Shown: positions 1-64,000 of the stretch, piece by piece
Layout: each line of letters begins with the position of its first letter
Numbering within the stretch: the first letter of the stretch is position 1
From: a virus
Taxonomy: Duplodnaviria; Heunggongvirae; Uroviricota; Caudoviricetes
Length of the DNA: 64,000 bases
Strand: one strand, 5' to 3'
IMG/VR virus record: IMGVR_UViG_3300001798_000005
Made by a program: the position numbers and the translations under genes
The notes under the pieces: generated by a model
Databases searched by the model: none
What the model was told of the DNA's origin: nothing
Seen by the model: the letters and a program-made list of their open reading frames with translations, nothing else

Positions 1-40
1 CTTTGATAATTCAAGTATTATAATTGATTTTTTTGATTTT

Positions 41-320
41 GTAATTCATGAAGTGTATTATTAAGAAAAATATACAACTACAATTGTAGCAATATACATG
101 TGTAATAATATATATATAATATTAATATATATATTATTAATATTATATATAGTATAGATCATCTAGTACACTTCATCAACTTCACGCTTCAACCCCGGTA
201 CTGTCTCAGATACCGGGGTATGGATTTTTGGCTTGAAGCGTGAAGTGTGGGGTTGAAAACTTGTGGGTGATTGACTTTCAGCGATATTGAAATCTGACTG
301 AAACGGGCTGAAGCGTGAAG
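41..320. other. Putative replication origin (AT-rich palindromic core plus TGAAGCGTGAAG repeats)
   Basis: Nearly pure A/T near-palindrome at ~103-150; inverted repeats 49-57/167-175 and 179-192/233-246; hairpin 193-218; lies directly downstream of the primase-helicase gene. Confidence 0.55.
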
Positions 321-321
321 C

Positions 322-2517
322 CTAAACTGGCTGGAAGATCCGCCAAATAGACGTCTTGCCATCATTATCGCATTGGATCTGGTGAGATTCAACCAGGTCA
401 TTCAGAATTTCGGTCCGGCGTCTTTTATTCAAATTTTGGGTTTTTCTCGTCAGGGCGGCCTGGGTGATTCCCTGATGGGCCTCGATGATCCGCAATACTT
501 TTTTCAGCTCGCCCTCGGTTTCGTTGTCGCTGACGTGTTGGCTCACCATGGCCGCCATCCGGTCCGCTGACATCAGGGCGACGTCATTTGCCCAGCTGAT
601 TAGGTCTTTTGTGATTACGCCATCCCAGGAGGCCGTGAGGGCGATTTTAGCCGAATGCTCAAAGGATCTCGACCAACACCCCTCCAGACCTGACTTGAGA
701 CGGATTTCTTCCGCCTGTCTGGCCCGGCAGGCGATCATGAAGTCATCCCAAGCCTTCTGGGCCTCTGGGGTCATGAGGATCACTTGAGGCCGGATGGCTG
801 GTTTGCCCAGACTACTGAGGTCTATCGCGACATGACCGCCCCTCGGGTGGGCATTGGTCGGCATCGCAGCCAGCTCCTTGATGGCGGATACGATCCCCTC
901 TGGGGGTTCCCCGATCCCCTGGCGGCAATGGGGGACGAGTTCAAAGCCTTTTTCTTCAAAATAGAGCCACCGGGCCATAAAGCCATCGCTGGACTCTGAA
1001 CTCGACAGGGCCTCATGGATGTGTTGCGGCACAGAAGTTGCATGAACGTTGAGGCACGGCTGGTCGATATCGGTTCTTCCACGCTTGCCGTCGGCGTTCC
1101 CGTACTCGGTTCCGGCGTAAATCTCGTTTGCCTCGCTGAAGAGCTTCAGCATGAGGGTAGTGATCCCCGCCTGGGGACCGGCGTTTTTTCCCGACATGTG
1201 CTTCAGGGTCCGGCCAAACTCGTCCAATTGCAAAAACGCCCGCCCGTTCCGTTCCGCCAAGGTCTTGAGCAATCCGGCCCCCGAGGCGGGGTCTCCCCCG
1301 ATCAGGCCCGTCAGACCGGCCTCAATCAGAAGAATATTGGCGCATTTTCGATTGTGGTCCTTTCCGGCCCCCGAGGCCGCCATCCCGAGAGTATAAAGGT
1401 TGGTCCTGAGGTCTGATTCGGTCGCGACCCGATGAGCCCGAACGGCTCCCAGCATCGGTAGAGCTGCCGCCATGGCGAGTTCGGCCGACGGCCATGGGGC
1501 TCGGTCCATCATCCACCGCACGATATCGCCCAACAACCCCGGTGCCCGCAGGAGGAGGTCATTTTGGACAATAGGGACTTCTACCCTTGGGAGTATATTC
1601 CCCCCTGGGATGATACAGCCCCGATCTACCGGTGGGGGGGCGGGCTTGACCCAGCCATTTTCATAAGCCCAATAGAAGATCGATTCAATTTTCTTTTCAT
1701 TTCTCTTAAAGGATTTCCACTTGCCCGGCTGACGCTTTTCCTGATACTTCAGACTGCTACGGCTCCACTGGTCCCAGAGGGGGAACCCCTGATCGCCCAG
1801 GTGGGTCTTGAGCGCCATCCCGACCTCGATCCAAGTATTGTAGTCATCCGCTGGAATACAGGACAGAGCGGACTCGATCTCCTGATCTGAGGTCCAACTG
1901 TAGTCTTGCTGGATCGCGTATGCCGCAGCGGGCTTGAAGCGCCGAAAAATATCGTCAACCCTTTCGCAAAAGTCAACCGGCAGTTGGGGAATTTTCTCAA
2001 AATCAACAGTCGTGAGGTCTTCCTCGGTGAGCCAGCGGTATTCTGCCCCGCAGGGGTGGACCGTCGGGGGGAGGACGGTCTGACGGCCATCTGAGAGGAG
2101 TTCAACCACCATATCGCCATGGAGTTTCCACTGGTGGGTTTCCTCCCCGGAATGGAGGTAAAAGGCCGTGAAGCCCTTTTCGCCCATCTTCTTTACTGGC
2201 GAATCCGGCACCATGGCCTGAATCTCTGCGTGGATGCCTTCGGCGTCAAAGTCATAATCCAAGGCCACCAGACACCCCAGCGGCCCGAGGGTCATCCCGA
2301 TCCCGGCGTCGGGCCATTTCTCCCAGGCTTCGATCTCAGACGGACTAGCGAGCCGGTGGCTGTAGTGCTTGGTCCACTCCCGCATCTTGCCCCAACGGTA
2401 TTGCTGGATCTCGGGATCAAAGTAGTAGCTCCCTGGAGCTTTCGTCCCTGGACAGATCGGGATAACGGGGAGGTCCTTTTCAACGTACCGGCGGGCGACT
2501 TGGGCGAATTTTGACAT
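322..2517 (-). CDS. Bifunctional primase-polymerase with PriCT-2 and DUF3987-like helicase/ATPase domain
   Basis: N-terminal Prim-Pol motifs (VIPICPGTKAP, GIGMTLG, ALDYD); PriCT-2 (YNTWIEVGMALK...W..WS); Walker A SGAGKD; LDEFG; C-terminal winged helix. Confidence 0.9.
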   Translation of the reverse strand: MSKFAQVARRYVEKDLPVIPICPGTKAPGSYYFDPEIQQYRWGKMREWTKHYSHRLASPSEIEAWEKWPDAGIGMTLGPLGCLVALDYDFDAEGIHAEIQAMVPDSPVKKMGEKGFTAFYLHSGEETHQWKLHGDMVVELLSDGRQTVLPPTVHPCGAEYRWLTEEDLTTVDFEKIPQLPVDFCERVDDIFRRFKPAAAYAIQQDYSWTSDQEIESALSCIPADDYNTWIEVGMALKTHLGDQGFPLWDQWSRSSLKYQEKRQPGKWKSFKRNEKKIESIFYWAYENGWVKPAPPPVDRGCIIPGGNILPRVEVPIVQNDLLLRAPGLLGDIVRWMMDRAPWPSAELAMAAALPMLGAVRAHRVATESDLRTNLYTLGMAASGAGKDHNRKCANILLIEAGLTGLIGGDPASGAGLLKTLAERNGRAFLQLDEFGRTLKHMSGKNAGPQAGITTLMLKLFSEANEIYAGTEYGNADGKRGRTDIDQPCLNVHATSVPQHIHEALSSSESSDGFMARWLYFEEKGFELVPHCRQGIGEPPEGIVSAIKELAAMPTNAHPRGGHVAIDLSSLGKPAIRPQVILMTPEAQKAWDDFMIACRARQAEEIRLKSGLEGCWSRSFEHSAKIALTASWDGVITKDLISWANDVALMSADRMAAMVSQHVSDNETEGELKKVLRIIEAHQGITQAALTRKTQNLNKRRRTEILNDLVESHQIQCDNDGKTSIWRIFQPV

Positions 2518-2546
2518 CAGGCGACCTTTCTCTATATGGGTTTTTG

Positions 2547-2627
2547 ATCGTACTCTATTGAGTCAAAAAGGTCAAAAAACAATCATTAAAAAATTCACTT
2601 GACCGATCGGATATTCTTTCGTAAGAT
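2547..2627. promoter_or_regulatory. Back-to-back sigma70-type promoters
   Basis: Minus strand TTGACC(2575-2570)-N17-TACGAT(2552-2547); plus strand TTGACC(2599-2604)-N17-TAAGAT(2622-2627). Confidence 0.7.
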
Positions 2628-2683
2628 TTTGGAATCGGAAAGCATCGCTTTTTGATACTTTATGAAAATGAAAAGGAACGCCC

Positions 2684-3511
2684 ATGCTCGATCTTAAACA
2701 GCTCAAGCCAAAAGTAACGCACGATCCCCCCCGGTTGGTCTTCTATGGTCCCCCCGGCAAGGGAAAGACCTACACAGCCGCCCAGGCGGGCGAGCATATC
2801 TTTCTGAATATCAATGATGGCCTCGGGGGCATCCCCCATACGGCTTTCCCGATCCGGGGCGCCGACAAGGGCGATGATATCTTCAAGACCTACGATGAGA
2901 TCATCTGGGCCCTGGACGCCATCCTGAATCAGGATCATGACTTTCGGGTCCTGATCATTGATGGTCTCTCTGACCTGGAGGAGCTCATCCACCGCCAGAT
3001 CTGCGCCGCCTCGGGGGTGAGTACGATCGCCAAGGCCTGCGGGGGATACGGGAAGGGCTACGTTGAGGCCATGAACTCCTGGAATGAGGTCTTGTCCCTC
3101 TTGAGCCAGATTCGGCAAAAGCGGAACATGGTCATTGTCCTGTTGGCCCACTCGAATATCAAGTCCTACGCTGACCCGATGGCGGACTCCTATGACCGCC
3201 ATGTCCTAAAGCTCCATGACGCTGCAGCTTTTCGGATCCGAGAATGGGCGGATGCGGTTTTGTTTCTTGATCAGAAGGTCTATATTGACAAATCCCAAGA
3301 GGGCATGAAGAAAATCGCCAAGGCGAATTCCTTGGGGCTAACGTTTTTCACCTCTGAGAATCCCCGCCATCAGGCTAAAAACCGATACGGGCTGCCCTCG
3401 GAGATCCCTATGTCGTGGCAGGGGCTCATGGCCGCCATGAGCGAAGCCGCGACAAAAGCGAACACCGTAACAGCAAGCGAGAGAGAGAACACACACAATG
3501 GCACGATTTGA
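2684..3511 (+). CDS. AAA_24 family ATPase (Sak4-like annealing protein)
   Basis: YGPPGKGKT Walker A; IIDGLS; GGYGKGY; AKNRYGLP are typical of phage NTP-binding/Sak4 proteins. Confidence 0.88.
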   Translation: MLDLKQLKPKVTHDPPRLVFYGPPGKGKTYTAAQAGEHIFLNINDGLGGIPHTAFPIRGADKGDDIFKTYDEIIWALDAILNQDHDFRVLIIDGLSDLEELIHRQICAASGVSTIAKACGGYGKGYVEAMNSWNEVLSLLSQIRQKRNMVIVLLAHSNIKSYADPMADSYDRHVLKLHDAAAFRIREWADAVLFLDQKVYIDKSQEGMKKIAKANSLGLTFFTSENPRHQAKNRYGLPSEIPMSWQGLMAAMSEAATKANTVTASERENTHNGTI

Positions 3512-3977
3512 ATTTGACGCCACCGGGCAGCCTCAGCGGGAGGAATTCACCATTCTGCCCGACGGGAGCTATTCGGCGGTCTGCACGGCCTCCGAGATGG
3601 TGGCGAATAAATCCGGTGAAGGTCAACACCTTCTTTTGAAATTCAGCGTCTTTGAAGGCCCCCGAGAGGGCGCTTTCGTTTCGGACCGGCTGAATCTCGT
3701 CAACCCCAACCCCCAGACGGTCGAGATTGCCTATAAGGTTCTGACTGACCTCCTGCTGGCCATGGAGGGCGTTCGGGGGACCGCCAAAGTTGAAAATACG
3801 GATGACCTAATCGGGCACCCGGTGGTGATCAAAGTCGGGACCAACAAGGCGACTGAGCAGTATGGCCCCTCTAACAAGATCACCAAGTATTCCCCCTGGG
3901 TGGCTGGGTCTGCCCCGCAGCCCGTGGCCGTTGCGGTCGCGGCAGGACCGCCCGCGAAGGCGCCTTGGGAAAAATAG
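3498..3977 (+). CDS. DUF669 family single-stranded DNA-binding protein
   Basis: LPDGSYSA...LLLKFSV..GP..G..V.DRLNL.NPN pattern; follows the Sak4-like gene. Confidence 0.8.
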   Translation: MARFEFDATGQPQREEFTILPDGSYSAVCTASEMVANKSGEGQHLLLKFSVFEGPREGAFVSDRLNLVNPNPQTVEIAYKVLTDLLLAMEGVRGTAKVENTDDLIGHPVVIKVGTNKATEQYGPSNKITKYSPWVAGSAPQPVAVAVAAGPPAKAPWEK

Positions 3978-3999
3978 CGCAACAGCGCACAAGAAGCCG

Positions 4000-4286
4000 G
4001 GAGCGAAAAGCCAGGCCCCCAGTAAGCATAGCCTTCGGGCCGCTCCTGATCTGGGGAGGTTACTCCACCGTCATGGGCCTCTAGGGTTGATTCGCCCGAA
4101 TGAGGATCTAGACCCAGCGAGGAGTGGATCAAAAGGCTCGGGAAAGCCTTAAGGGGATGCCGTTGGGCAAAATGGCACAGCGGCATTCTCTCCCACCCCT
4201 CACTGGAGCGCTTTGATAAAGCGTGGTCCAGGACAGCCGGAGGCCTGTCGTCTCCCCTGACCCCGGCAGGGTGCGTAAGCGCCGGG
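4000..4286 (+). ncRNA. Highly structured non-coding RNA candidate upstream of the tmRNA-like domain
   Basis: Near-continuous stems including a cUUCGg hairpin (4031-4040), GNRA loop (4273-4280) and a 9-bp core stem 4157-4165/4178-4186; no credible ORF. Confidence 0.55.
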
Positions 4287-4290
4287 ACAT

Positions 4291-4368
4291 GGGGCTGATT
4301 GGATTTGAATGGGTCTAAAGCCGCTTGTCGGAGGGCTCATCACGGCGGTTCGACTCCGCCCAGCTCCA
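4291..4368 (+). ncRNA. tmRNA-like tRNA-like domain (TLD) lacking the mRNA-like domain
   Basis: Acceptor GGGGCTG/CAGCTCC+A with G3-U70; stemless D loop ATTGGATTTGA; P2 ATGGGTCT/AGGGCTCAT capped by a short hairpin; T arm GGCGG-TTCGACT-CCGCC. Confidence 0.85.
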
Positions 4369-4394
4369 ATATTTTGCAAAAAAGGAGACACAAT

Positions 4395-4754
4395 GTGATC
4401 AACCCCGCACCCAATCTTGTCGTGATTGAGCTTGACTATCGCCTCATGACCCACAAGGGCCAGGATGTTGACGTCACGGGCCAGATCTGGATCGACCTCA
4501 ACGACGTTGGGATCATCAGGACTGAAGTCCACAACGGCGAGACCTTCACTACCACTTTTCAGGACAAGCGGAATGGCTCAATCGTTGAACTCGGACCGGC
4601 TGGATCGAAATCATTTTTTGAAAAGTGGGAACGATACTGCGCCGAGAAGGATCTGATCCGCGAGCGGGATCTTCCGGCTCAGAAGACCGGAAGCTTGATC
4701 GCAACCCCCTTGGGGGAATTCAACCCCAACGGGGGACGGATTGTTAAAATATAG
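4395..4754 (+). CDS. Hypothetical protein
   Basis: GTG start after AGGAG RBS; 119 aa. Confidence 0.6.
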   Translation: MINPAPNLVVIELDYRLMTHKGQDVDVTGQIWIDLNDVGIIRTEVHNGETFTTTFQDKRNGSIVELGPAGSKSFFEKWERYCAEKDLIRERDLPAQKTGSLIATPLGEFNPNGGRIVKI

Positions 4755-4783
4755 TTGACACACTTTAAAAAATTTCATAACAT
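4755..4783 (+). promoter_or_regulatory. Sigma70-type promoter
   Basis: TTGACA-N17-TAACAT. Confidence 0.6.
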
Positions 4784-4838
4784 GATAGCACAGCAAGCGA
4801 CCGGACATCTACGAACACGCAAGGGATACGAGAGAGCT

Positions 4839-4866
4839 CCCCGGTCGAGAGATCGGGGATTTTTTT
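4839..4866 (+). terminator. Intrinsic terminator/attenuator immediately before ORF 4867
   Basis: CCCCGGTC-GAGA-GATCGGGG followed by a T7 tract. Confidence 0.7.
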
Positions 4867-5325
4867 ATGGATAGACAGGACTTCAATGCCCTCTTGGCTG
4901 AGATCCTTCATGAAAGTAAGCGTTACGTCGATTGCCGCTCTCGTGGGCTCCTGAACCTCCGGCAAATCGGTCAAGGTGGCGATATTACTCTAGAGGATGG
5001 GATCCTAACCCTTGTGATTTGTGTTCTTGAGCTCCAGGTTGGCCACGGCGGGACGGCTGAAGCCATCCAGGTCCTGGAGGAGTTGACCTCAGAGGGCCGC
5101 ACCCTGATGGATGCCCTCAATAGGGCGCTCCACAGTCCTGACCCACAGGATTGGGAACAGACCAAGCTGATCCTGGACCTCAATTTGCGCTTTGCGGATC
5201 TGTTCCTCTGTGAGGAGGGCTGTCCCCCGAGGCGGTATCACTTCGGCGAGGGTGTCCCGGAAAAGTCCAGACGAGCCCATTTGGCGGGATCGATCTTCCG
5301 CAAGCTCAGAAGGGCTTTCTCATGA
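4867..5325 (+). CDS. Hypothetical protein
   Basis: 152-aa ORF overlapping the start of the next gene. Confidence 0.6.
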   Translation: MDRQDFNALLAEILHESKRYVDCRSRGLLNLRQIGQGGDITLEDGILTLVICVLELQVGHGGTAEAIQVLEELTSEGRTLMDALNRALHSPDPQDWEQTKLILDLNLRFADLFLCEEGCPPRRYHFGEGVPEKSRRAHLAGSIFRKLRRAFS

Positions 5326-10865: not shown

Positions 10866-11327
10866 GATGAGACTTACGTTGGAGGACGTCGCCGGGGAAA
10901 GCGCGGAAGGGGAGCGGAAGGTAAAACCCCGGTAATCGGCATTGTGGAACGTGGTGGGGAAGTCAAAGCCATTGTGTCCACCGATACTAAAGCCGCAACT
11001 ATACTACCGTTTATCTGCGAAAACGTAGAGCCCGGTTCTCAGATGATGACGGACGAGTACGCATCCTATAGCAGGATCTCATTGAACGGTTTCACTCACC
11101 AGCGCGTGAACCACGGTGTTGGTGAGTACGTGGCGGGCATCGTCCACACAAACACAATCGAAGGATTCTGGAGCCAGTTAAAGCGCTCCATAAACGGGAC
11201 TTATCACTCGGTTAGTCCGCGTTATCTTCAGTCGTATGTGAATGAGTTTGCGTATCGTTATAATCGTCGCCACGTCCAGGAGCATCCTTTTCACGCTTTG
11301 ACTTCAACGGCTGCGCGGCTCGTGTAA
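10866..11327 (+). pseudogene. IS1595-family (ISXO2-like) DDE transposase, N-terminally truncated
   Basis: In-frame DETYVGG...GKTPVIGIVERGG; TDE; VNH; HTNTIEGFWSQLKR; YLQSYVNEF.YRYN; begins 6 bp after the helicase stop with no start codon or Zn/HTH region. Confidence 0.88.
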
Positions 11328-47025: not shown

Positions 47026-47361
47026 ATGAAAAACCACGCGGAAATTTATCAAGCACTTTTGGATGGAAAAAAATTGACGTTCTCTCAAAAATCCTACGTC
47101 TGGCTCGAAGACGGAACCCTTGTCAATCAGGCCGGCAACTGCCCAGAGAGCAACTTTTTATTCCCGGAAGACTGGGAAATCTACAAAGAGCCCAAAAAGA
47201 GCCTGACTTATGAGGAAGCGATTGCTTGCCGAAAGGTGAGGATCGTGTGGCCGAATGGGTGTGGGCAGGTTGTGGACCGCAATTCTGGAATGGATTGGGC
47301 GCTGACTCGCTTTGACCTTGCCGAGCGCCGTGGGTATTTGATGGAGGAGGAGGTGGAGTGA
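47026..47361 (+). CDS. Hypothetical protein, paralogue of 51848-52192
   Basis: GKKL...DGT...EDWEIY.EP...T.E...FDLA.R.G shared with the paralogue. Confidence 0.7.
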   Translation: MKNHAEIYQALLDGKKLTFSQKSYVWLEDGTLVNQAGNCPESNFLFPEDWEIYKEPKKSLTYEEAIACRKVRIVWPNGCGQVVDRNSGMDWALTRFDLAERRGYLMEEEVE

Positions 47362-47507
47362 TAATCTGTGATTTTTGCTTTAAATCGCAGTACGCAGTCA
47401 AACTGCTTATAGCAGGGCCAAATGTGATGATTTGCAATGCATGTGTGGATATTTGCAATGAAGTTGTGGCGGAACACGCCAAGGAAGGGACGAAAACCAA
47501 TGACTGA
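47358..47507 (+). CDS. Stand-alone ClpX C4-type zinc-binding domain protein (not in ORF track)
   Basis: MIICDFCFKSQYAVKLLIAGPNVMICNACVDICNEVVAEH; GGAGG RBS; GTGA overlap with the upstream stop. Confidence 0.88.
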   Translation: MIICDFCFKSQYAVKLLIAGPNVMICNACVDICNEVVAEHAKEGTKTND

Positions 47508-59705: not shown

Positions 59706-60029
59706 CTATTTAGACAGGGGGAAGAAATAGGAAGCACGTGCTCTTGTCTGGACTTGTATTTTTTGCTCATCGATTAATTGATTAATCAAGCTATTTCGTT
59801 GGCTCTTATTTAGCCATTGAGTCTTTCTAGTTAGATCCATTTTGTAAATTCCACAATTATCTGAAATTATTTTATAAATTTTATCTTTCTCACTGTGCCG
59901 AGTTGGCTTAAACTCCCCCCTGGTGGTTATTATTTCAATTATTTTATCCAGCTTCTCCTCCAGGGTGGTTATTTTGCTTAAAATGAAGTCAACAGTATCC
60001 ATATATGGCAATCTCCTTTGATAATTCAA
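59706..60029 (-). CDS. Winged-helix protein paralogous to the primase-helicase C-terminus
   Basis: DLTRKTQWLNKSQRNSLINQLIDEQKIQ vs ALTRKTQNLNKRRRTEILNDLVESHQIQ. Confidence 0.7.
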   Translation of the reverse strand: MNYQRRLPYMDTVDFILSKITTLEEKLDKIIEIITTRGEFKPTRHSEKDKIYKIISDNCGIYKMDLTRKTQWLNKSQRNSLINQLIDEQKIQVQTRARASYFFPLSK

Positions 60030-60336
60030 GTATTATAATTGATTTTTTTGATTTTGTAATTCATGAAGTGTATTATTAAGAAAAATATACAACTACAATT
60101 GTAGCAATATACATGTGTAATAATATATATATAATATTAATATATATATTATTAATATTATATATAGTATAGATCATCTAGTACACTTCATCAACTTCAC
60201 GCTTCAACCCCGGTACTGTCTCAGATACCGGGGTATGGATTTTTGGCTTGAAGCGTGAAGTGTGGGGTTGAAAACTTGTGGGTGATTGACTTTCAGCGAT
60301 ATTGAAATCTGACTGAAACGGGCTGAAGCGTGAAGC

Positions 60337-62532
60337 CTAAACTGGCTGGAAGATCCGCCAAATAGACGTCTTGCCATCATTATCGCATTGGATCTGGTGA
60401 GATTCAACCAGGTCATTCAGAATTTCGGTCCGGCGTCTTTTATTCAAATTTTGGGTTTTTCTCGTCAGGGCGGCCTGGGTGATTCCCTGATGGGCCTCGA
60501 TGATCCGCAATACTTTTTTCAGCTCGCCCTCGGTTTCGTTGTCGCTGACGTGTTGGCTCACCATGGCCGCCATCCGGTCCGCTGACATCAGGGCGACGTC
60601 ATTTGCCCAGCTGATTAGGTCTTTTGTGATTACGCCATCCCAGGAGGCCGTGAGGGCGATTTTAGCCGAATGCTCAAAGGATCTCGACCAACACCCCTCC
60701 AGACCTGACTTGAGACGGATTTCTTCCGCCTGTCTGGCCCGGCAGGCGATCATGAAGTCATCCCAAGCCTTCTGGGCCTCTGGGGTCATGAGGATCACTT
60801 GAGGCCGGATGGCTGGTTTGCCCAGACTACTGAGGTCTATCGCGACATGACCGCCCCTCGGGTGGGCATTGGTCGGCATCGCAGCCAGCTCCTTGATGGC
60901 GGATACGATCCCCTCTGGGGGTTCCCCGATCCCCTGGCGGCAATGGGGGACGAGTTCAAAGCCTTTTTCTTCAAAATAGAGCCACCGGGCCATAAAGCCA
61001 TCGCTGGACTCTGAACTCGACAGGGCCTCATGGATGTGTTGCGGCACAGAAGTTGCATGAACGTTGAGGCACGGCTGGTCGATATCGGTTCTTCCACGCT
61101 TGCCGTCGGCGTTCCCGTACTCGGTTCCGGCGTAAATCTCGTTTGCCTCGCTGAAGAGCTTCAGCATGAGGGTAGTGATCCCCGCCTGGGGACCGGCGTT
61201 TTTTCCCGACATGTGCTTCAGGGTCCGGCCAAACTCGTCCAATTGCAAAAACGCCCGCCCGTTCCGTTCCGCCAAGGTCTTGAGCAATCCGGCCCCCGAG
61301 GCGGGGTCTCCCCCGATCAGGCCCGTCAGACCGGCCTCAATCAGAAGAATATTGGCGCATTTTCGATTGTGGTCCTTTCCGGCCCCCGAGGCCGCCATCC
61401 CGAGAGTATAAAGGTTGGTCCTGAGGTCTGATTCGGTCGCGACCCGATGAGCCCGAACGGCTCCCAGCATCGGTAGAGCTGCCGCCATGGCGAGTTCGGC
61501 CGACGGCCATGGGGCTCGGTCCATCATCCACCGCACGATATCGCCCAACAACCCCGGTGCCCGCAGGAGGAGGTCATTTTGGACAATAGGGACTTCTACC
61601 CTTGGGAGTATATTCCCCCCTGGGATGATACAGCCCCGATCTACCGGTGGGGGGGCGGGCTTGACCCAGCCATTTTCATAAGCCCAATAGAAGATCGATT
61701 CAATTTTCTTTTCATTTCTCTTAAAGGATTTCCACTTGCCCGGCTGACGCTTTTCCTGATACTTCAGACTGCTACGGCTCCACTGGTCCCAGAGGGGGAA
61801 CCCCTGATCGCCCAGGTGGGTCTTGAGCGCCATCCCGACCTCGATCCAAGTATTGTAGTCATCCGCTGGAATACAGGACAGAGCGGACTCGATCTCCTGA
61901 TCTGAGGTCCAACTGTAGTCTTGCTGGATCGCGTATGCCGCAGCGGGCTTGAAGCGCCGAAAAATATCGTCAACCCTTTCGCAAAAGTCAACCGGCAGTT
62001 GGGGAATTTTCTCAAAATCAACAGTCGTGAGGTCTTCCTCGGTGAGCCAGCGGTATTCTGCCCCGCAGGGGTGGACCGTCGGGGGGAGGACGGTCTGACG
62101 GCCATCTGAGAGGAGTTCAACCACCATATCGCCATGGAGTTTCCACTGGTGGGTTTCCTCCCCGGAATGGAGGTAAAAGGCCGTGAAGCCCTTTTCGCCC
62201 ATCTTCTTTACTGGCGAATCCGGCACCATGGCCTGAATCTCTGCGTGGATGCCTTCGGCGTCAAAGTCATAATCCAAGGCCACCAGACACCCCAGCGGCC
62301 CGAGGGTCATCCCGATCCCGGCGTCGGGCCATTTCTCCCAGGCTTCGATCTCAGACGGACTAGCGAGCCGGTGGCTGTAGTGCTTGGTCCACTCCCGCAT
62401 CTTGCCCCAACGGTATTGCTGGATCTCGGGATCAAAGTAGTAGCTCCCTGGAGCTTTCGTCCCTGGACAGATCGGGATAACGGGGAGGTCCTTTTCAACG
62501 TACCGGCGGGCGACTTGGGCGAATTTTGACAT
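60337..62532 (-). CDS. Primase-polymerase/helicase (repeat copy)
   Basis: Identical to 322-2517. Confidence 0.9.
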   Translation of the reverse strand: MSKFAQVARRYVEKDLPVIPICPGTKAPGSYYFDPEIQQYRWGKMREWTKHYSHRLASPSEIEAWEKWPDAGIGMTLGPLGCLVALDYDFDAEGIHAEIQAMVPDSPVKKMGEKGFTAFYLHSGEETHQWKLHGDMVVELLSDGRQTVLPPTVHPCGAEYRWLTEEDLTTVDFEKIPQLPVDFCERVDDIFRRFKPAAAYAIQQDYSWTSDQEIESALSCIPADDYNTWIEVGMALKTHLGDQGFPLWDQWSRSSLKYQEKRQPGKWKSFKRNEKKIESIFYWAYENGWVKPAPPPVDRGCIIPGGNILPRVEVPIVQNDLLLRAPGLLGDIVRWMMDRAPWPSAELAMAAALPMLGAVRAHRVATESDLRTNLYTLGMAASGAGKDHNRKCANILLIEAGLTGLIGGDPASGAGLLKTLAERNGRAFLQLDEFGRTLKHMSGKNAGPQAGITTLMLKLFSEANEIYAGTEYGNADGKRGRTDIDQPCLNVHATSVPQHIHEALSSSESSDGFMARWLYFEEKGFELVPHCRQGIGEPPEGIVSAIKELAAMPTNAHPRGGHVAIDLSSLGKPAIRPQVILMTPEAQKAWDDFMIACRARQAEEIRLKSGLEGCWSRSFEHSAKIALTASWDGVITKDLISWANDVALMSADRMAAMVSQHVSDNETEGELKKVLRIIEAHQGITQAALTRKTQNLNKRRRTEILNDLVESHQIQCDNDGKTSIWRIFQPV

Positions 62533-62698
62533 CAGGCGACCTTTCTCTATATGGGTTTTTGATCGTACTCTATTGAGTCAAAAAGGTCAAAAAACAATCA
62601 TTAAAAAATTCACTTGACCGATCGGATATTCTTTCGTAAGATTTTGGAATCGGAAAGCATCGCTTTTTGATACTTTATGAAAATGAAAAGGAACGCCC

Positions 62699-63526
62699 AT
62701 GCTCGATCTTAAACAGCTCAAGCCAAAAGTAACGCACGATCCCCCCCGGTTGGTCTTCTATGGTCCCCCCGGCAAGGGAAAGACCTACACAGCCGCCCAG
62801 GCGGGCGAGCATATCTTTCTGAATATCAATGATGGCCTCGGGGGCATCCCCCATACGGCTTTCCCGATCCGGGGCGCCGACAAGGGCGATGATATCTTCA
62901 AGACCTACGATGAGATCATCTGGGCCCTGGACGCCATCCTGAATCAGGATCATGACTTTCGGGTCCTGATCATTGATGGTCTCTCTGACCTGGAGGAGCT
63001 CATCCACCGCCAGATCTGCGCCGCCTCGGGGGTGAGTACGATCGCCAAGGCCTGCGGGGGATACGGGAAGGGCTACGTTGAGGCCATGAACTCCTGGAAT
63101 GAGGTCTTGTCCCTCTTGAGCCAGATTCGGCAAAAGCGGAACATGGTCATTGTCCTGTTGGCCCACTCGAATATCAAGTCCTACGCTGACCCGATGGCGG
63201 ACTCCTATGACCGCCATGTCCTAAAGCTCCATGACGCTGCAGCTTTTCGGATCCGAGAATGGGCGGATGCGGTTTTGTTTCTTGATCAGAAGGTCTATAT
63301 TGACAAATCCCAAGAGGGCATGAAGAAAATCGCCAAGGCGAATTCCTTGGGGCTAACGTTTTTCACCTCTGAGAATCCCCGCCATCAGGCTAAAAACCGA
63401 TACGGGCTGCCCTCGGAGATCCCTATGTCGTGGCAGGGGCTCATGGCCGCCATGAGCGAAGCCGCGACAAAAGCGAACACCGTAACAGCAAGCGAGAGAG
63501 AGAACACACACAATGGCACGATTTGA
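62699..63526 (+). CDS. Sak4-like AAA_24 ATPase (repeat copy)
   Basis: Identical to 2684-3511. Confidence 0.88.
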   Translation: MLDLKQLKPKVTHDPPRLVFYGPPGKGKTYTAAQAGEHIFLNINDGLGGIPHTAFPIRGADKGDDIFKTYDEIIWALDAILNQDHDFRVLIIDGLSDLEELIHRQICAASGVSTIAKACGGYGKGYVEAMNSWNEVLSLLSQIRQKRNMVIVLLAHSNIKSYADPMADSYDRHVLKLHDAAAFRIREWADAVLFLDQKVYIDKSQEGMKKIAKANSLGLTFFTSENPRHQAKNRYGLPSEIPMSWQGLMAAMSEAATKANTVTASERENTHNGTI

Positions 63527-63992
63527 ATTTGACGCCACCGGGCAGCCTCAGCGGGAGGAATTCACCATTCTGCCCGACGGGAGCTATTCGGCGGTCTGCA
63601 CGGCCTCCGAGATGGTGGCGAATAAATCCGGTGAAGGTCAACACCTTCTTTTGAAATTCAGCGTCTTTGAAGGCCCCCGAGAGGGCGCTTTCGTTTCGGA
63701 CCGGCTGAATCTCGTCAACCCCAACCCCCAGACGGTCGAGATTGCCTATAAGGTTCTGACTGACCTCCTGCTGGCCATGGAGGGCGTTCGGGGGACCGCC
63801 AAAGTTGAAAATACGGATGACCTAATCGGGCACCCGGTGGTGATCAAAGTCGGGACCAACAAGGCGACTGAGCAGTATGGCCCCTCTAACAAGATCACCA
63901 AGTATTCCCCCTGGGTGGCTGGGTCTGCCCCGCAGCCCGTGGCCGTTGCGGTCGCGGCAGGACCGCCCGCGAAGGCGCCTTGGGAAAAATAG
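63513..63992 (+). CDS. DUF669 SSB (repeat copy)
   Basis: Identical to 3498-3977. Confidence 0.8.
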   Translation: MARFEFDATGQPQREEFTILPDGSYSAVCTASEMVANKSGEGQHLLLKFSVFEGPREGAFVSDRLNLVNPNPQTVEIAYKVLTDLLLAMEGVRGTAKVENTDDLIGHPVVIKVGTNKATEQYGPSNKITKYSPWVAGSAPQPVAVAVAAGPPAKAPWEK

Positions 63993-64000
63993 CGCAACAG

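Follow-up and report, generated by a model that had tools for sequence, protein, structure and literature searches.

The question raised by this locus is whether the 78 nt at positions 4291-4368 of a viral DNA sequence of 64,000 nt (hereafter the window, meaning the whole stretch that was analysed) encode the tRNA-like domain (TLD) of a tmRNA from which the mRNA-like domain is missing, as a preliminary description made from the sequence had claimed, and, if so, how such an RNA would act on its host. The 64,000 nt wrap around a sequence of about 60,015 bp, bases 1-3985 being repeated exactly at 60016-64000 (3985 bp), and the phage genome is either circular or terminally redundant. Its terminase is distantly related (44% identity) to the terminases of Rhizobium phages, and its replication module includes genes for Prim-Pol, AAA_24, DUF669, PD-(D/E)XK nuclease, Pif1-type helicase and SNF2-type helicase proteins. 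Given the terminase and the replication module, the element was rightly called phage-encoded. Directly after the SNF2-type helicase gene, an ORF of 127 aa (10944-11327, + strand) retains only the C-terminal part of an IS1595-type DDE transposase domain (PF12762, E = 2e-34) and is a truncated IS remnant.

The element is composed of the following parts, given here with the basis of each assignment:

4291..4368, + strand, the whole TLD-only ("mini") tmRNA gene, 78 nt from G1 to the discriminator A73, matched over its full length (1-78/78) by the models R2 (75.0 bits) and R1 (77.8 bits)
4291..4297, + strand, 5′ strand of the acceptor stem, GGGGCTG, with G3 at 4293, pairing with 4361-4367
4298..4308, + strand, stemless D loop ATTGGATTTGA with the tmRNA-type GGNUUYGA motif, aligned to the family consensus aauGGUUUCGA and unpaired in the family consensus structure
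4309..4316, + strand, 5′ strand of helix P2, from a constrained fold, with compensatory changes in all seven modelled family P2 pairs
4317..4332, + strand, A-rich internal loop TAAAG and 3-bp hairpin CCG-CTTGT-CGG, matching the conserved family motif uAAAgCCgcAugcGGaa
4333..4340, + strand, 3′ strand of helix P2, from the constrained fold and family covariation
4341..4343, + strand, 3-nt linker CAC, by alignment to the family, with family consensus gAC
4344..4360, + strand, T arm GGCGG-TTCGACT-CCGCC, from sequence reading, a local RF00023 match and the R2 alignment
4361..4368, + strand, 3′ strand of the acceptor stem, CAGCTCC, with U70 at 4365, and the discriminator A4368, from sequence reading

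The acceptor stem is a helix of 7 bp (4291-4297 with 4361-4367) that includes the wobble G4293·T4365, corresponding to G3·U70; together with A4368 this makes up the alanine identity set, both parts of which are present. The D loop, unpaired on direct reading at 4298-4308 and containing GGATTTGA, is of the stemless GGAUUUGA type, and this tmRNA-type loop is combined with a canonical T arm (GGUUCGANUCC). Helix P2 joins A4309-T4316 to G4333-T4340 by 8 pairs, 3 of them G·U, and closes on itself through the short hairpin CCG-CTTGT-CGG at 4321-4331, where a full tmRNA would have its pseudoknots and tag frame. At most 24 nt separate the two P2 strands, and the mRNA-like domain with its resume codon and stop-ended tag frame is absent; there is no anticodon arm, tag frame or pseudoknot anywhere in 4291-4368, and A4368 is followed by AATATTTT, so that CCA is not encoded. 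What is present is a complete TLD in standard order, with a length in the class of about 75-81 nt of the DS6A type described below, which deviates from its family in the linker (CAC versus GAC) and in the D loop (GAA versus GAC). Direct reading bears out the anatomy first proposed for this element (acceptor stem, G3-U70, discriminator A, stemless D loop, P2, hairpin, linker, T arm, no CCA). The coordinates proposed with it are right to within one base, the 3′ strand of P2 occupying 4333-4340 and not 4332-4340.

Relatives were sought in viral contigs with a first pattern consisting of an acceptor stem and a T arm at mini-tmRNA spacing, with G3·U70 fixed. Two sets were retrieved: tRNA-Ala genes of 73 nt, and dozens of elements of 75-84 nt with the anatomy of the window element. 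Every one of the latter has the same architecture in constrained folds. The acceptor stem and T arm of the window element do resemble those of the 73-nt tRNA-Ala genes, but it is barely conceivable that it is an aberrant tRNA-Ala gene itself: an anticodon arm cannot be drawn, D stem and cloverleaf are absent, and ARAGORN calls no gene in the window. Nor did ARAGORN call a tRNA for any of the 152 listed family elements, whether or not CCA was added. A confident canonical tRNA fold, which the preliminary description had named as grounds for abandoning its reading, was thus not returned for the window.

The relatives form a real RNA family. In the consensus of a MAFFT alignment (A1), all 7 P2 pairs and the outer T-stem pairs show compensatory changes, and a broader pattern yielded about a hundred further elements, all confirmed by R1. 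Among 81 distinct sequences, 97.8% of cells are paired, versus about 50% with slid partners, and compensatory changes are found in 14 of the 19 pairs, including 7/7 of those in P2; the alignment of these 81 sequences was fitted to the model, and alignment A1 agrees with it. P2 and the T stem therefore covary across the family. The union of all scans of viral contigs comprises at least 152 distinct elements in at least 212 viral loci, and 27 of the 152 listed elements encode CCA.

The window element belongs to this family by an independent score. Covariance model R2 was built from 97 other viral elements, with neither the window element nor that of phage DS6A in the training set, and it matches the window element end to end with 75.0 bits (E ~1e-14 in 125 kb), compared with 15 bits for the opposite strand; R1 gives 77.8 bits for the window element and 62.2 bits for that of DS6A. 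The element is more than a chance fold. A custom TLD model, proposed at the outset as a check, has in this way given a strong match. Existing tmRNA models, the companion check, miss the element. Rfam at gathering thresholds finds no match in the window, and RF00023 (tmRNA) gives only a local match of 17.1 bits to the 3′ T arm and acceptor strand; the element neither reaches the gathering score of 47 nor has the pseudoknots PK1-PK4. On the mitochondrial side no tmRNA match was reported, and RF02544 had no match to the window in Rfam scans, one of which omitted lower-scoring overlapping matches of the same clan. The unconstrained MFE fold of the element prefers another pairing of the D-loop region and has a z of only -1.9, so the support for the fold is comparative, not thermodynamic.

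Since the first patterns had fixed G3·U70, an unbiased pattern with only the D loop and T arm fixed was also used. It yielded 80 distinct elements, of which 79 have a perfect 7-bp acceptor stem; G3·U70 is present in 79/80 and A73 in 80/80, while acceptor positions 4-7 take many covarying forms. Fixed G3·U70 and A73 amid varying neighbours are what selection for charging by AlaRS would be expected to leave. Patterns specific to the window element found no close copy of it in metagenome contigs or viral contigs, and blastn searches of cultured phages with the region or the element as query returned only short T-arm matches, with no relatives of either and no close relative of the phage; blastn against E. 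coli genomes gave no match. The relatives of the upstream DUF669 gene (four loci, L119-L122, 36-38% identity) have no mini-tmRNA. Since no close relative of the exact element was found, selection is supported at the level of the family and not for the lineage of the window.

Related elements also occur in contigs assigned to bacteria. Mini-tmRNAs of the phage type, scoring 55-85 bits, are found in genome contigs (L221-L294) of Patescibacteria, Saccharibacteria, Actinomycetes, Nostoc (3 assemblies), Treponema, Christensenella, Muribaculaceae, Achromobacter and others, and presumably belong to prophages or mis-binned phage contigs. A TLD-like variant of 72-73 nt, scoring 34-49 bits with R2, is seen in many chromosomal MAG contigs of Eremiobacterota/Vulcanimicrobiota (L223-L300). 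It often lies in tandem arrays of units of about 310 bp, with at least 4 copies in one contig (L265:1300-2700); the copies differ from one another by compensatory changes in P2 and share a conserved GCCGC after the discriminator. At one locus (L006:7371-7673, − strand), ARAGORN calls a "tmRNA" of 303 nt with an odd repetitive tag (VPIMGLIV...), the 3′ end of which is a 75-nt mini-tmRNA; this call is probably a false extension of the mini-tmRNA.

The type is known from one phage. In PMC4131195 and PMC11915505, Mycobacterium phage DS6A is listed as having a "TLD only" tmRNA (tmRNA Website tmID 11587, Phage__Mycobacterium.9), and the same sources cite Mao et al. 2009 for a similar TLD-only molecule that strongly inhibits E. 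coli tmRNA, reportedly with no need for charging. Titration of SmpB was suggested as the cause of this inhibition (PMC4131195, citing Mao et al. 2009). The preliminary description, which knew of no such RNA in a phage, was therefore mistaken on this point, and its idea of SmpB titration had likewise been put forward before. In the DS6A genome the element is an unannotated stretch (JN698994 28478-28557) flanked by gp33 and gp34. Its inner hairpin motif is that of the window element, and R2 matches it over its full length with 68 bits. By these model scores and the shared anatomy, the window element is a homologue of the published DS6A TLD-only tmRNA.

The two RNAs (80 nt in DS6A, 78 nt in the window) share an acceptor stem with G3·U70, A73, a stemless D loop, a P2 helix closed by a AAAACCGCACGCGG-type hairpin, a short linker, a T arm and the absence of CCA. 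One model set matches both; both lie in a neighbourhood of replication genes, and both are unannotated in their records. They differ in acceptor pairs 6-7 and in the sequences of P2 and the T stem, all compensatorily, and the D loop of the window element is 2 nt shorter; the phages are unrelated, and the window RNA is preceded by a structured leader of 313 nt, whereas the DS6A RNA begins 10 nt past gp33. As to the extent of what is published, the 2025 tmRNA database counts 79 phage tmRNAs and no more than 9 sequences of the kind "Standard, no CDS" (PMC11915505), and no paper describing a large TLD-only family was found in a literature search. A TLD-only phage tmRNA is thus already published for one phage, DS6A, and the window adds one more unannotated member. 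The core of the initial claim, a phage-encoded tmRNA TLD without an mRNA-like domain, stands, on an anatomy that fits the family consensus and on homology to DS6A by covariance model.

The element also retains features of standard one-piece tmRNA (RF00023; E. coli ssrA), with which it has in common G3·U70, A73 and the GGAUUYGA D loop, and from which it differs in the absence of pseudoknots, resume codon, tag frame and encoded CCA. Apart from a 2-nt gap, its 5′ end is identical to nt 1-20 of E. coli ssrA at 17 of 18 aligned bases; its 3′ T arm and acceptor strand are identical at 22 of 27, with four T-stem differences that keep both pairs. The inner-loop motif of the window element, AAAGCCGC, is present in E. 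coli ssrA as well, shortly upstream of the tag frame: the conserved family form uAAAgCCgcA (window 4317-4325) matches the ssrA stretch UAAAAAGCCGCA (L427:259-270), which we take to be the 3′ side of pseudoknot 1. There is a hint here that the mini-tmRNA family may have arisen by an internal deletion that kept this stretch.

Could the element then be a mere relic of a host gene? The 3′ end of ssrA is a common integration site for phages, which carry the corresponding fragment (PMC9004378, PMC10865867), and an RNA that is unannotated and has no CCA might be a non-functional remnant, either a decayed ssrA fragment or an attP core that dates from integration into the tmRNA gene of a host. An att core comprises no more than the 3′ part of the gene, whereas the window has the 5′ acceptor strand, the D loop and P2 with all pairs intact, as well as an end-to-end match to a covarying family, and a Pfam scan of 30 window proteins revealed no integrase. 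The decay to an attachment-site remnant that had been foreseen as the undoing of the tmRNA reading is not what the locus shows, both acceptor strands and the D loop being present and the family helices covarying. This explanation is largely refuted by the anatomy, and we regard it as very unlikely.

Two-piece tmRNAs exist in nature (PMC9004378), and the element might accordingly supply only the acceptor half of a split tmRNA, the tag being encoded by a second piece at another place in the phage genome. Like the permuted two-piece tmRNA of phages and Alphaproteobacteria (RF04321; phage Melnitz, PMC9004378), it is a phage-borne, tmRNA-derived gene; those genes, however, begin with the 3′ acceptor strand and include a coding piece, whereas the window element has the standard order, a distinction that had been correctly drawn in the preliminary description. 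An RF04321 match in the window (16.4 bits, E = 0.21) was rejected, since the partner that it assigns to the T arm is a spurious site within the following ORF. P2 is self-closed by its hairpin and leaves no free strand for a coding piece; ARAGORN and Rfam find no tmRNA in the window, the upstream leader has no tag-like frame, and only five frames genome-wide end in a tag-like tripeptide (LAA, AAA etc.), one of them short and antisense to a gene. A split gene is, on these grounds, highly improbable. In having little beyond a TLD and no tag frame, the element rather resembles the CDS-less tmRNAs of jakobid and oomycete mitochondria (RF02544) and the forms of about 65 bp in Mallomonadaceae plastids (PMC11915505). 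The organellar RNAs are presumed still to work with SmpB; unlike the window element, which has the standard order and belongs to a phage, they are usually permuted and A+U-rich and have a dedicated nuclear SmpB.

The genes and sequences next to the element bear on how it would be made:

3498..3977, + strand, upstream gene for a DUF669 protein of the replication module (PF05037, E = 2.2e-8)
3978..4290, + strand, structured non-coding leader of 313 nt, G+C-rich, between the DUF669 gene and the mini-tmRNA (MFE z = -3.3 for the + strand, -2.9 for the − strand)
4382..4754, + strand, AAGGAG ribosome-binding site (4382-4387) and downstream gene for a protein of 119 aa, from GTG at 4395 to 4754, by sequence reading and ORF

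The 119-aa protein matches no Pfam family. Its start codon follows the 3′ end of the mini-tmRNA by 26 nt, and the interval 3400-4754 yielded neither a sigma-70-like promoter nor a + strand terminator; the RNA must therefore be processed from a longer operon transcript. The leader is probably co-transcribed with the mini-tmRNA, and it is uncertain whether it should be counted as part of the same feature. It belongs to no Rfam family, is similar to none of the loci compared, and has neither a tag-like frame nor a sarcin-ricin or GTPase-centre (rRNA-mimic) motif; the first three of these results led us to reject it as the missing mRNA-like domain or as a known RNA. Further downstream, the interval 4755-4866 holds a near-consensus sigma-70 promoter (TTGACA, 17-nt spacer, TAACAT) and, about 55 nt past it, a 9-bp terminator-like hairpin with a T run that reaches as far as the start codon of the next gene (ATG at 4867). 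The interval may encode a small RNA or an attenuator-type leader.

Across phages, the mini-tmRNA gene is mobile in position. At least 23 loci have it between the prohead protease and HK97-type capsid genes, and in a large subgroup (L005, L075, L170 and about 20 other viral loci) it occupies a fixed slot in the order portal, S78 prohead protease, mini-tmRNA, HK97-type capsid. In another group (L011, L049 and L086) it precedes scaffold-like and capsid-like ORFs, assigned by position only. tRNA genes lie within 300 nt of 34 of the 152 listed elements, some of which are inside tRNA arrays.

Such placements, together with the short distance to the next start codon and the missing promoter and terminator in the window, are consistent with a tRNA-like punctuation mark, that is, an RNase P or 3′-processing site, or a stabiliser, that would divide the transcript into an upstream part, with the 313-nt leader, and the downstream mRNA, and would do nothing on the ribosome; differential mRNA processing is plausible between prohead protease and capsid genes and ahead of scaffold and capsid genes. 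Yet any tRNA-like fold would do for processing, whereas a D loop of the tmRNA type, G3·U70 and A73 are specifically retained in the family, and relatives are also free-standing in tRNA arrays. We consider punctuation unlikely as the function of the element.

On balance, we think it somewhat more likely than not that the window RNA, a TLD-only, tag-less tmRNA homologous to that of DS6A, competes with host tmRNA and thereby diverts or blocks host trans-translation. The RNA would be transcribed within the + strand replication-module operon and excised in the manner of a tRNA, by RNase P at G1 and by 3′ trimming, after which the host CCA-adding enzyme would supply CCA; tRNA-like expression is consistent with the placement of listed elements near or inside tRNA arrays. 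Host AlaRS would then charge it with alanine via G3·U70 and A73, and host SmpB would bind it through the tmRNA-type D loop and T arm. The SmpB has to be that of the host, given that no SmpB gene was found in any of five other carrier phage records and that tblastn with an E. coli SmpB query, a search of low sensitivity, gave no match in the window. Lacking a resume codon and tag frame, the RNA would be a rival of host tmRNA in binding SmpB and EF-Tu and in entering the empty A site of stalled ribosomes, with the net result that nascent chains would not receive the ssrA degradation tag. Such competition, or a sponge for SmpB, is the most likely reading given the homology, the conservation of the identity elements and the E. 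coli experiment cited above, from which the biochemical steps are extrapolated.

The conservation of the alanine identity set, although inhibition reportedly needs no charging, argues that the RNA reaches the ribosome, and suggests more than passive titration of SmpB. This favours a productive, tag-less rescuer, in which the alanyl-TLD·SmpB complex would enter the stalled ribosome, accept the nascent chain and add one or, in repeated rounds, several alanines, after which drop-off, Pth or ArfB-type release would free the ribosome. The phage would gain from the recycling of ribosomes, with no degradation of its own truncated proteins, and not from inhibition itself. A passive sponge would not need the identity that the family keeps (G3·U70 and A73) while other acceptor pairs vary, many family members lie in highly expressed late operons beside capsid genes, and the CDS-less tmRNAs of mitochondria and some plastids are thought to help with incomplete mRNAs (PMC11915505). 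However, no mechanism is known for the release of a peptidyl-TLD on a template-less ribosome, the sole experiment cited in the literature concerns inhibition of tmRNA and not rescue, and the data presented here fit competitive inhibition equally. We regard productive rescue as a serious rival, if on the unlikely side.

One further gene in the window touches on the same pathway as the competition with host tmRNA that we favour:

47358..47507, + strand, gene of 49 aa for a free ClpX zinc-binding domain (PF06689 zf-C4_ClpX, E = 1.3e-13)

The zinc-binding domain of ClpX docks the adaptor SspB, which delivers ssrA-tagged proteins, and a free copy of it could interfere with this adaptor-mediated delivery. 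The gene is a possible functional companion of the mini-tmRNA in the ssrA-tag/ClpXP pathway, a link that we draw from these functions. The pairing is not general: PF06689 has no match in five other mini-tmRNA phage records, and tblastn gave no convincing match to a ClpX zinc-finger gene near other mini-tmRNAs, a weak match in L086 lying inside the capsid-like ORF.

It is tempting to speculate that the strictly kept alanine set means that the RNA is charged and acts on the ribosome by adding untemplated alanine, that the ClpX domain is a second prong directed against the ssrA-tag/ClpXP pathway, and that the 313-nt leader might be a third RNA component; this combined picture is offered as a doubtful one. 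Bacteria rely mainly on trans-translation for ribosome rescue and quality control, and a phage RNA that hijacks or blocks it would be a compact, protein-free means of reprogramming host translation. The useful part of the finding is the view that it gives of a family of at least 152 elements that conserve alanine identity and recur beside capsid genes and in tRNA arrays; ARAGORN calls none of the 152 listed a tRNA, and it detects neither the window element nor that of DS6A. This view raises the question of whether charging matters, and with it whether these RNAs would serve as sponges or as active tag-less rescuers.
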